Shown piece by piece: positions 15,001-18,000 of a DNA stretch of 64,000 nucleotides (within the stretch, counting starts at the first letter, position 1; each line of letters begins with the position of its first letter). Origin of the DNA: Escherichia coli (lineage in GTDB: Bacteria; Pseudomonadota; Gammaproteobacteria; Enterobacterales; Enterobacteriaceae). Position numbers: made by a program. The stretch lies in the NCBI RefSeq assembly GCF_003790525.1, contig NZ_CP033632.1; one strand, 5' to 3'.

Positions 15001-18000
15001 CTTATTCACTTCCTGCTCGAACGCTTCCGGAACCTGCAACTGAATAAACTCGCCCTTATCTATCAGGGAGTATTGCGATTGCTGCGTGATTGAATCATCA
15101 CTGTCGTCGTCTTCGCTGGTGGCTTGTTTAGGCAAACTGTCCGCCAGCTGCTGCACCGCATCGGCGTACTCCGGCAGGAAACGATAGGTGATCCGGCGAT
15201 AGTACAGGTCCATGTCAGTACATACGCGGTCCATATCCCTGATTATTGAGAAGATCGGACGGGCTTTCTCGTGCTCAATCACTCCGTCTTCATCGACCGA
15301 GGTCGTTACGCCATTGTTGGCTTTGGCCACCGCTTCCGCCTGCTGGCGTAATTCTTCATACGCCGCCAGTTGTTCTTCAGTAAGTGGTGCATCCTGCTGG
15401 TGTTCGTCCAGTTCCGGGATCTCCACGGTATCCTTAACGTCTTCCGCCGTTTTAAGCGTTGTCCAGCGATGGAATATGCCGCGCAGCGCATCAAGGTTTT
15501 CAAAGCCCACCAGCGCCATTTTTTCTTCAACTTCACCGCTGATTTTCTGTACCGTTTCCAGCCTGGTCTTGCCGAAGAATTTAACGAAGTCATCAGGACC
15601 GTAGATCCCCATCTTCTGCCAGTATTCCTTCGGCAGCACATGAGAAAGCATGTTGTATGCATCGATCGGGGTGTTAACGACTGGCGTTGCAGTCAGGAGA
15701 ACCGGTCCGCGCCCACCATTCTTTTTCATCAGGTACGCGTTTTTAATTGCCATATCCCGCGCCGATTGCGCCACCGCGCTGGTGGGCAGATAGGCCAGTT
15801 GTGACGCTTCGCGACCATTTTTATAGCTATTGCGGTAGTTGTGACCTTCGTCAGCGATCACACTATCGAAGCCCATATCCTCAAAGTACGGATACTTCTC
15901 TGCTTTTTCGGTACCGGTATCTGAATACTCCGACAATACCCGGCGACGCGCGGCCTCTTTGCGGTGGGAGTCGGAGTCCATTGCGCTGGCTACGCGCCCG
16001 GCGGCAACGAAGTCATAAAGCATATCCTGTGCATGCTCATCTACGGTGTCATCACGTAGCGGAGTGCGGGCGTATTGTTCTTTGGTAAACACGACTGCAC
16101 GGTAATTTGAGTGCGGGATCGCGTTCATCCGCGCCGTGATAGTGGCTTCATCTGCCAGTTTTAGGGCATCGCGCATAACTGGAGTGCCATCAGTACCAAG
16201 AACAGGAGCACCTCCCACGCTAACGCGCGGGCCCCGAATCTCACCGTTCTGAAACCACAACAAAAAAAAATCAGGAATAAAAAACACCACACAAACACAG
16301 CACTGTACCCCCCCTCATAACTGAAAAGCGCCGCCGCCCCCGCCCGAAGGGCGGGAACAACATCGCTTTTAATTATGAATGTTGTAAGTACATTGTCATC
16401 ACTGTCAGTCTTCTGGCTGGAAGTCCTCAGTACACGCTCGTAAGCGGCCCTCACGGCCCGCTAACGCGGAGATACGCCCCGACTTCGGGTAAACCCTCGT
16501 CGGGACCACTCCGACCGCGCATAAAGGCTCTGTCATGGCTGAAAACGGGTATGGCTTAGCAGGGCCGGGGGTGGGTAAGGTGAAATCTATCAGTCAGTAC
16601 CGGCTTACGCCGGGCTTCGGCGGTTTTACTCCGGTATCATATGAAACAACAGAGTGCCGCCTTCCATGCCGCTGGCGCGGCATCAGGACAATTGAAGAGT
16701 GACGGCGCACATTAACATCAAACAGACTTGTTAAGCAGTCTTTCAGGGTGTAATCTGAAGACCTGTTAAATAGTCTCAGAGGTGTGTTATGCCCAGTATC
16801 ATTTTGTCTGACACCAGTGCAAGCGTCAGTGAGCTGAAAAAAAATCCGATGGCAACTGTCAGTGCCGGAGAGGGGTATCCTGTTGCCATTCTTAACCGGA
16901 ATCAGCCAGCATTCTACTGTGTCCCTGCTGAGCTCTATGAAAGAATGCTTGATGCCTTGGATGACCAGGAGCTGGTAAAACTGGTTACTGAACGCAGCAG
17001 TCAGCCTCTGCATGATGTGGACCTGGACAGTTATTTATGACTTATACAGTAAAATTCCGGGATGATGCACTGAAAGAATGGCTCAGACTGGACAAGACCA
17101 TTCAGCAGCAGTTCGCAAAAAAACTGAAAAAATGCAGTGAAAATCCTCATATAGCTTCTGCAAAACTACGTGGATTAAAGGACTGCTATAAAATCAAACT
17201 TCGCGCATCAGGTTTTCGTCTGGTTTATCAGATTATTGATGATATGTTAATTATTGCGGTCGTCGCAGTAGGTAAACGTGAACGCAGCAACGTTTATCAT
17301 CTCGCCAGTGAACGGATGAAATAATATCCTGGTCAGCACTCTTTCTTACCTGCTTCCATTTTTTCAGTGATTCTTTTCCTGCATGCAGAAAAAAAGCCTA
17401 CCCTGTGGGCAGGCATAACAGACAATCGCACAGTCAGTGTTGAAATTAATGATGTCACGCATTATACCCGGTGGATACACAAACCATCCCTGCAAATGCA
17501 TTGGCATCCTAATCAACGTCTGAAACAACTGCAATGGCCGGACCTGTGATTTCAGAGAAAGTTATTATGTTTATTGAATATAACCGAAGTGATAAATAAA
17601 AGTATTATCACCTTTAATATTTATGCTTATTGCGTGGTTTTATCTGGTTATATAAAGCACAGATGTTCTTATTATTTTCTGAAAAATAACGGTAATGACT
17701 CCAACTTATTGATAGTGTTTTATGTTCAGATAATGCCCGATGACTTTGTCATGCAGCTCCACCGATTTTGAGAACGACAGCGACTTCCGTCCCAGCCGTG
17801 CCAGGTGCTGCCTCAGATTCAGGTTATGCCGCTCAATTCGCTGCGTATATCGCTTGCTGATTACGTGCAGCTTTCCCTTCAGGCGGGATTCATACAGCGG
17901 CCAGCCATCCGTCATCCATATCACCACGTCAAAGGGTGACAGCAGGCTCATAAGACGCCCCAGCGTCGCCATAGTGCGTTCACCGAATACGTGCGCAACA

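Follow-up and report, generated by a model that had tools for sequence, protein, structure and literature searches.

An intact StbD/StbE toxin-antitoxin gene pair, accompanied by IncFII-type DNA, in a P1-derived plasmid of Escherichia coli

The 64,000-nucleotide stretch of Escherichia coli DNA analysed here (contig NZ_CP033632.1 of assembly GCF_003790525.1; hereafter the window) contains two overlapping genes on the + strand, stbD and stbE. The first (16789..17040) begins with an ATG and codes for the antitoxin StbD, of 83 amino acids, and the second (17037..17324), also with an ATG start, codes for the 95-residue RelE-family toxin StbE. As read from the sequence, the stop codon of stbD and the start codon of stbE share the bases ATGA at 17037-17040, giving a 4-base overlap, and a Shine-Dalgarno motif, GAGG (16779..16782, + strand), is situated 6 nt to the 5′ side of the stbD ATG. 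Inspection of the sequence upstream of the stbE ATG revealed no good Shine-Dalgarno motif, and the two observations together are consistent with translational coupling. The two proteins have opposite polarity, with an acidic antitoxin (pI 4.3) and a basic toxin (pI 10.0), and the pair has the form of a StbDE module, an antitoxin-first bicistron of overlapping genes encoding proteins of about 83 and 95 residues; the same 83 plus 95 residue architecture with a 4-bp overlap is also found in Pantoea and on a Yersinia chromosome. Homology marks the two open reading frames as genuine genes instead of chance occurrences, since StbE matches RelE with an E-value of 1e-29, StbD has 4545 relatives at E <= 0.001, and both exact proteins are present on at least 1000 public contigs. 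A preliminary description had placed a type II pair of 83 and 95 amino acids with a 4-bp overlap at 16789-17324, as the open reading frames and the shared ATGA confirm, and had named it StbD/StbE, a name that holds because the toxin passes the RelE_StbE model, the polarity fits, and public sources give the exact StbD sequence as 'antitoxin StbD'. StbDE has been known since 1998, and the pair is an intact copy of these known type II toxin-antitoxin genes, an ordinary one whose importance is small beyond correct annotation.

By its sequence relationships StbE is a member of the RelE/StbE family of toxins. It scores 35.4 bits against the TIGR02385 (RelE_StbE) model, above the curated cut-off of 27.9, and residues 1-93 of its 95 align to the E. 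coli RelE chains 4v7k and 4fxe with E-values of 1.4e-29 and 1e-28; the alignment to E. coli K-12 RelE is ungapped, with 53% identity between proteins of the same length. The RelE residues R45, K52, K54, R61, R81 and Y87, which are known to be catalytic or to contact mRNA or have been mutated in RelE, are identical and at the same positions in StbE in all six cases, so that RelE-fold residues are recovered on alignment, as the preliminary description had required; we note that the RelE mutant PDB chains among the matches carry R81A and R45A. YoeB is matched in the PDB search with an E-value of 0.62. The best Pfam family is ParE_toxin (PF05016; 57.1 bits against a cut-off of 23, E = 2.9e-15), there is a weak match to ParE-like_toxin, and many copies of the toxin are named 'RelE/ParE family' by PGAP, but it is extremely unlikely that StbE is a ParE-type gyrase poison instead of a RelE-type mRNA endonuclease, and we reject this assignment: PF05016 includes ParE as well as RelE, StbE exceeds the cut-off of the specific RelE_StbE model, no PDB chain other than E. 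coli RelE is matched strongly and no ParE chain matches at E <= 1, the RelE catalytic residues are all kept, and the StbE of pEP36 has been reported to inhibit translation (PMC3827094).

StbD appears to be composite. Its N-terminal domain (approximately residues 5-56) is, in the predicted structure, a Phd/YefM fold: the AlphaFold2 model (pLDDT 92.7) has the order strand-helix-strand-strand-helix, and its 41 top Foldseek matches in the PDB are all antitoxin chains, almost all of them labelled YefM, Phd or PfiA, with M. tuberculosis RelJ, RelB1 and RelB2 included. The match probabilities are mostly 0.9-1.0 and the target-normalised TM-scores reach 0.85; the E-values are weak (0.01-0.6), as is expected of so small a domain, and StbD shares no more than 13-24% of its amino acids with these antitoxins. 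Against the Pfam PhdYeFM family (PF02604) StbD itself scores 24 bits (E = 3.2e-5), below the gathering score of 29.8, and 47 of 50 StbD relatives match the family, the best at 1e-13; PGAP also labels StbD as Phd/YefM family. The last 25 residues (58-82), as aligned, resemble the RelE-binding tail of RelB, with residues 54-79 of E. coli K-12 RelB matching this segment at an hhalign probability of 89.4% (E = 2e-6, 44% identity), the StbD family profile matching chains 2kc8_B and 4fxe_A at E = 0.03-0.04, and the Pfam RelB-like family (PF18506) matching 7 of 50 StbD relatives. Residues 54-79 of RelB are its RelE-binding segment and its N-terminal domain is a ribbon-helix-helix, whereas that of StbD is predicted to adopt the Phd/YefM fold, so the operators of the two systems must differ. 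A RelB fold for the N-terminal domain of StbD was considered and rejected: sequence and profile searches gave no RelB chain covering residues 1-57, Pfam RelB gave no StbD match at E <= 0.01, no E. coli RelB chain is present among the 50 listed PDB fold matches, and the model and its fold matches are of the Phd/YefM type. The earlier label 'RelB/RelE-type' is therefore apt for the toxin and for about 25 residues of the antitoxin tail, but not for the DNA-binding domain of the antitoxin, and StbD is better described as a Phd/YefM-fold protein with a RelB-like tail than as 'RelB'. Its N-terminal dimerisation and DNA-binding fold matches that of the antitoxins of YefM-YoeB and Phd-Doc, but the partner toxins in those systems are YoeB and Doc, whereas the partner of StbD is RelE proper.

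To the left of stbD are two operator-like palindromes of 18 nt on the + strand, AGACTTGTTAAGCAGTCT at 16724..16741 and AGACCTGTTAAATAGTCT at 16759..16776, which are two copies of a direct repeat of 18 nt at 35 bp spacing; the pattern has two occurrences in the 64 kb, with none expected by chance. Both palindromes are kept in the Pantoea and Yersinia stbDE loci while their flanks diverge, and the homology of the window to these loci starts at 16720-16724, with the first palindrome. On this conservation they are likely to be the operators of stbDE, to which StbD may bind. Phd and YefM act at palindromic operators that overlap the promoter, and the candidate palindromes here are similarly placed. 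The first contains a candidate −35 hexamer, TTGTTA (16728-16733, + strand), a putative −10 hexamer, TAATCT (16751..16756, + strand), follows 17 nt past it, and the second palindrome lies over the expected transcription start. A consensus scan flagged no sigma-70 consensus promoter before stbD; TAATCT was missed because only three of its six positions match; T1, A2 and T6 of this hexamer are invariant in an alignment of four loci. Downstream of stbE the scan gave no clear + strand terminator, the RNA of 17300-17440 folds no more stably than shuffled sequence (z = 0.58), and the only terminator-like hairpin (17414-17396) is on the minus strand.

The carrier of the pair is a P1-derived resistance plasmid, and stbDE is located in its non-P1 cargo. 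Positions 9479-16206 of the window match P1 with 94.6-98.2% identity, depending on the record, and the match ends in a 5′-truncated darB gene (12238..16206, − strand, within a minus-strand open reading frame of 12238..16290) that keeps the C-terminal 1329 or so of the 2255 codons of full-length P1 darB; this is the 'truncated helicase' to which the pair was earlier said to be adjacent. From 16207 to 16684 on the + strand, plasmid matches identify an origin-proximal fragment from downstream of an IncFII-family repA gene; at least 5000 plasmid records match this fragment with about 92% identity. Window positions 16308-16683, for example, correspond to 1333-1708 of pEcFELIX724.1, where the repA stop codon is at 858 and the match occupies the interval roughly 470-850 bp beyond it. 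In CP146682, an IncK2/Z plasmid, the block 16208-17323 is found undivided behind repA with 90.9% identity. By these alignments stbDE arrived along with a piece of DNA that had neighboured an IncFII-type replication gene. At its right the stbDE fragment is bounded by an IS1 (17691..18458, − strand) with insA and insB open reading frames, the 768-bp match to IS1 copies extending from 17690/17691 to 18458 and this copy being oriented like the IS1 resident in P1; IS elements and foreign DNA form the mosaic in which the cassette lies.

Hundreds of sequenced E. coli plasmids carry identical copies of stbDE. Of 5426 complete E. coli genomes, 361 have the pair at a query cover of at least 80%, as do at least 353 PLSDB plasmids, and this allele ranks among the commonest toxin-antitoxin pairs of E. 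coli plasmids. A megablast comparison of the 901-bp locus with 50,697 phage records gave no match, and a phage origin of the pair was rejected on these grounds, though the parts of the window on either side of it are P1. These data also bear on whether the locus might be a decaying remnant, with its open reading frames intact and its promoter lost on excision from the IncFII context. The darB junction (16206/16207) is only about 580 bp upstream of stbD, and the promoter scan described above found nothing at consensus, but such decay is very improbable, as the Pantoea and Yersinia homology from 16720 marks a complete conserved cassette, palindromes included, the block from 16208 to 17323 is collinear with the IncK2/Z arrangement, and at least 24 plasmids carry the 901-bp locus at 100% identity, with both proteins being the common alleles.

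Among the closest known systems are other StbDE pairs. Both StbDE of Morganella morganii R485 and the copies on pB171 (orf44/orf43), pEntH10407, pSS and pO86A1 have the antitoxin gene followed by the toxin gene, coding for 83 and 95 amino acids as here, and a Morganella StbD homologue shares 89% identity with StbD of the window. The 83/95-residue stbDE genes of pEntH10407 and pB171 closely follow the IncFII repA1-repA4 genes (PMC2762410), and in comparison with pEntH10407 the window copy retains a piece of the same IncFII neighbourhood. No difference of substance from R485-type StbDE is apparent, except that the genes now reside in a P1-derived plasmid, to which some 0.5 kb of their upstream IncFII-type DNA has moved along with them. 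StbDE of the IncI2 mcr-1 plasmid pHNSHP45 is an experimentally established type II pair, with a toxin that is neutralised by the antitoxin and forms a complex with it, and its genes are cotranscribed, with a strong ribosome binding site for the antitoxin and a weak one for the toxin (PMC11878559). It shares the family name, but its genes overlap by 11 bp instead of 4, and it is thus a different member, which gave its plasmid no added vertical stability.

We conclude that the locus is very probably a functional StbDE-type II toxin-antitoxin operon, and propose a mechanism that draws on gene structure, family membership, predicted fold and palindrome conservation and extends beyond them. A single promoter overlapped by the two 18-nt palindromes would drive stbD and then stbE, with translation of stbE coupled to that of stbD through the ATGA. 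StbE would act as a RelE-type ribosome-dependent mRNA endonuclease and arrest translation. StbD dimers would bind the palindromes through the Phd/YefM-fold domain, the RelB-like C-terminal tail would wrap StbE and neutralise it, and the StbD-StbE complex would repress its own promoter. On loss of the plasmid or of expression the acidic antitoxin, which we infer to be labile, would be degraded and the stable toxin would stop growth, penalising plasmid-free segregants or cells overtaken by a competing plasmid. The presumed toxicity of StbE and a stabilising effect on this element have precedents in the literature, in which StbDE of R485 is reported to stabilise plasmids and StbE to be toxic and to inhibit translation (PMC2762410, PMC3827094). 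A stabilising role here is plausible. Net stabilisation is not guaranteed beside the P1 parAB and hok/sok functions, given that a distant StbDE, on the IncI2 plasmid p45, is dispensable for vertical stability: its deletion left this unreduced (PMC11878559).

The same study shows only a modest advantage of p45 StbDE in plasmid-plasmid competition, with a ratio of 17:1 against a co-resident deletion mutant (PMC11878559), and this raises the possibility that the pair is real but was selected for plasmid competition or exclusion or for abortive infection, or is a selfish passenger of the IncFII fragment, and does not serve post-segregational killing. We regard this as a reasonable minority view. 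The element is already equipped with other maintenance systems; the preliminary description had listed hok/mok at 39.3 kb and ParAB, and we find hok/mok/sok at 39.2-39.5 kb, with parA and parB being the P1 partition genes, and pLKSZ04, a relative of the element, also keeps phd/doc. The setting of the cassette in a mosaic is a further point in favour of such a role. However, stbDE of R485 was isolated through a screen for plasmid stabilisation (PMC3827094), and neither StbD nor StbE matches any PADLOC defence model, so that a known anti-phage defence system was rejected. The choice concerns selective benefit, and the molecular mechanism proposed for the toxin-antitoxin operon would be unchanged.

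Beside its P1 parAB genes the P1-derived resistance plasmid has acquired maintenance modules that come from plasmids, namely hok/sok and stbDE, the latter with its IncFII-type DNA. This agrees with the published view that P1-like phage-plasmids can become plasmids (PMC10879196). The carrier probably also has the founding Phd-Doc module; if so, two Phd-fold antitoxins would be present in one element, with cross-talk possible. Finally, the cassette breakpoint is between 16684 and 16720, directly before the first operator palindrome, and the region just downstream of IncFII-family repA contains stbDE here and in the IncK2/Z-type, pB171 and pEntH10407 plasmids, and yacA with a ParE-like toxin in others. 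We speculate, with considerable doubt, that this region acts as a fixed slot where one complete toxin-antitoxin cassette can be swapped for another, in which case a cassette and the flank of its slot have now been transplanted into a P1-derived plasmid.

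The stbDE pair is very probably an autoregulated type II module of the standard kind, its toxin being of the RelE type. The annotation is correct and the system is an ordinary one that is already known. Three refinements can be made: StbD is predicted to join a Phd/YefM fold to a RelB-like tail, a conserved operator-like pair of sites marks where the cassette begins, and the carrier is P1-derived. The stbD gene (16789–17040) and the stbE gene (17037–17324) both lie on the + strand, have ATG starts, and encode 83 and 95 amino acids in the ORF list; the sequence reads ATGA at 17037–17040, common to the end of stbD and the start of stbE, giving exactly the lengths and 4-bp overlap reported in the preliminary description. 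AGAGGTG precedes the stbD start, with GAGG at 16779–16782, 6 nt upstream, and inspection of the sequence upstream of the stbE ATG found no comparable Shine-Dalgarno, which fits translational coupling. The computed properties are pI 4.3 and 9.2 kDa for StbD and pI 10.0 and 11.1 kDa for StbE, and the G+C content of the pair is 43.8% versus 48.6% for the window.

StbE matches Pfam PF05016 (57.1 bits, cut-off 23), a family that covers both RelE and ParE, and scores 35.4 bits against the NCBIfam model TIGR02385, 'RelE/StbE family mRNA interferase', above its curated cut-off of 27.9. Evidence specific to RelE rules out StbE as a ParE-like gyrase poison. A search of all PDB sequences gave strong matches to E. 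coli RelE chains alone (4v7k, 4fxe, 4v7j and 2kc8), aligned gap-free over residues 1–93 with E = 1e-29 to 8e-28; YoeB follows at E = 0.62 and no ParE chain is found at E ≤ 1. Wild-type RelE is identical at 50 of 95 ungapped positions (53%), and R45, K52, K54, R61, R81 and Y87, the known RelE catalytic residues, are the same residues at the same positions in StbE; mutant RelE chains among the matches carry R81A and R45A. A lack of RelE residues would have spoken against the proposed RelE-type toxin; the residues are present, and by homology StbE is a RelE-type toxin.

For the antitoxin StbD, Pfam returns PhdYeFM_antitox alone (24 bits, below the gathering score of 29.8), the best NCBIfam result is YafN, below threshold at 1.5e-10, and a single-sequence search of the PDB finds no RelB chain at E ≤ 1. 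A 50%-identity representative library contains 795 relatives at E ≤ 0.001, and a family alignment, A2, was made from the window StbD and 49 relatives (46 from this library and three from a 90% search); PhdYeFM is matched by 47 of these 50 sequences (best 1e-13) and the Pfam 'RelB-like' family PF18506 by seven. An AlphaFold2 model on A2 (mean pLDDT 92.7) has a strand at 9–12, helices at 13–25, strands at 32–36 and 39–44, and a long helix at 47–68. In a Foldseek search of the PDB, the best 41 of the 50 listed matches are antitoxin chains, with probabilities mostly 0.9–1.0 and target-normalised TM-scores up to 0.85. Nearly all of these carry the label YefM, Phd or PfiA, and M. tuberculosis RelJ, RelB1 and RelB2 are among them; the 50 include no E. 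coli RelB chain.

A profile of A2 aligns positions 58–82 with the RelE-binding C-terminus of RelB (2kc8_B and 4fxe_A, residues 54–79; E = 0.03–0.04). When A2 is compared by hhalign with E. coli RelB, in a sequence that agrees with the PDB chain from the profile search, StbD 58–82 falls on RelB 54–79 (probability 89%, E = 2e-6). The two tails are DDQELVKLVTERSSQP-LHDVDLDSY and EDAELVEIVKERLRNPKPVRVTLDEL, respectively. The fold and the tail matches argue for a two-part StbD, with a predicted Phd/YefM-fold dimerisation and DNA-binding domain and a RelB-like toxin-binding tail, so the description 'RelB-type' holds for the tail and fails for the rest. A RelB fold for the N-terminal domain of StbD is ruled out by the PDB sequence search, Pfam, AlphaFold2 and Foldseek. 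Separately, A2 positions 16–54 (window 16834–16950) match the N-terminus of DnaT (9zbu and 9zbt, E = 3e-4) and the NCBIfam DnaT model matches StbD weakly, which suggests that the N-terminal domain of this replication-restart protein shares a Phd/YefM-like fold.

Just 5′ of stbD are two copies of an 18-nt palindrome, 35 bp apart, at 16724–16741 (AGACTTGTTAAGCAGTCT) and 16759–16776 (AGACCTGTTAAATAGTCT); the pattern has no third site in the 64 kb, with a chance expectation of 0. The stbDE loci of one Pantoea contig and the Yersinia enterocolitica chromosome have the same layout (83 and 95 aa, 4-bp overlap), and in the upstream alignment both boxes are kept and their surroundings are not. By analogy with the mode of action of Phd and YefM, StbD or StbDE would bind these boxes. 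BLAST homology to the two loci (73–76% identity) starts at 16720–16724 and ends at 17315–17318, inside the last few stbE codons, limits that put the putative portable cassette at about 16720–17324. Since this whole conserved cassette is present, stbDE is unlikely to be a promoterless remnant. TTGTTA (16728–16733) and TAATCT (16751–16756), separated by a 17-nt spacer, form a candidate promoter, with T1, A2 and T6 of the second hexamer invariant in the upstream alignment; it remains a candidate because a consensus promoter scan did not flag it. A terminator scan and RNA folding found no + strand terminator after stbE, and on the minus strand a strong hairpin that resembles a terminator and has a T-run (17396–17414) lies 70 bp past stbE and points towards it.

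The element itself is a P1-derived plasmid, as window 40893–64000 is 98–99% identical to P1 53.4–77.3 kb. This stretch includes tail, sheath and capsid genes, parS/parB/parA, repA/oriR, dmt, ban and baseplate genes, and the anticipated ParAB are the P1 partition genes (46542–48756; parB 46542–47543, parA 47560–48756). Its tRNAs are Asn-GTT (55712–55787) and Thr-TGT (55790–55865), corresponding to P1 trnA and trnT, and one with a CAT anticodon (57670–57745), called Met by ARAGORN and corresponding to P1 trnI (tRNA-Ile2). Window 9479–16206 is P1 mat to darB (94.6–98.2% identity depending on the record), and the truncated helicase noted beside stbDE is darB without its N-terminal ~926 codons, some 1329 of 2255 codons being left where the P1 match stops at 16206. 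In the close relative pLKSZ04, P1 c1, phd/doc, parAB and some of the genes for head and tail are kept; it has lost most P1 morphogenesis genes, has gained MobI(A/C) and contains TraI-domain genes. Its phd/doc and mobilisation features lie at L009 (pLKSZ04) 6939–7540 and L010 28154–30103. It thus has two Phd-fold antitoxins on one element, is P1-derived and possibly mobilisable, and matches the published pattern of 'P1-like plasmids derived from phage-plasmids' (PMC10879196).

In P1, prt, pro, lyz, ssb and isaA are expected between darB and the resident IS1; none is present here from the darB break (16206) up to IS1 (17691–18458). Their place is taken by a 1.48-kb IncFII-type plasmid fragment of origin-proximal DNA and stbDE (16206/16207 to 17690/17691), which adjoins the IS1, and the swap looks like an IS1-associated replacement. 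Positions 16208–17323 form a single block 90.9% identical to the IncK2/Z plasmid CP146682 (3501–4619), where it follows an IncFII-family repA; at least 5000 IncFII-type plasmids match 16308–16683 at ~92% identity, and stbDE has no match in the phage collection. The block and these matches indicate that stbDE entered the P1-derived plasmid with an IncFII-type replication-region fragment, beside IS1. Conservation of the DNA 3′ of repA stops at about 16684, with the cassette beginning at about 16720. The alignment to pEcFELIX724.1 places 16308–16683 on 1333–1708, ~470–850 bp past the repA stop at 858; within 1333–2269 of that plasmid, the position taken here by stbDE holds yacA and a ParE-like toxin, which suggests a fixed slot downstream of IncFII-family repA where toxin-antitoxin cassettes are swapped. 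A 55-aa ORF within the origin-proximal DNA (16535–16702, +; 'hypothetical protein' WP_001352029.1 in relatives) contains a terminator-like hairpin (16608–16622) and may not be a real gene.

The exact StbD and StbE sequences each occur on at least 1000 contigs of a public collection, named 'antitoxin StbD' or 'Phd/YefM family antitoxin' and 'RelE/StbE' or 'RelE family toxin'. At least 24 plasmids, from E. coli, E. albertii and Shigella, have the 901-bp locus 16600–17500 at 100% identity, and at least 80% of it is present in at least 353 PLSDB records and in 361 of 5426 complete E. coli genomes. The stability locus stbDE was first found on R485, a Morganella morganii plasmid, and pEntH10407 has an 83/95-aa pair of the same architecture, identical to pB171 orf44/orf43, just after repA1–repA4 (PMC2762410). 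The StbE encoded by pEP36 is reported to be bacteriostatic and to inhibit translation (PMC3827094). The more distant StbDE of the IncI2 mcr-1 plasmid pHNSHP45 is toxic, neutralised and forms a complex; it is dispensable for vertical stability, and the advantage it gives in plasmid competition is only modest (PMC11878559). For the window's pair, the selected benefit may be post-segregational killing, plasmid competition or none; the PADLOC defence models give no hit for StbD or StbE.

The hok/mok system placed near 39.3 kb was also recovered, with hok (39377–39532, 51 aa), mok (39319–39525) and an Rfam sok match (39208–39382, 114 bits); this complete locus (39208–39532) is non-P1 cargo, ~1.4 kb before P1 homology resumes. 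An Rfam AAC_AAD_leader/attI match (2307–2378, −; 70.6 bits) marks a class 1 integron within the resistance region, at the window's left end. A 1171-aa autotransporter ORF (18635–22150, −) is intact here and annotated as frameshifted in the near-identical pLKSZ04.
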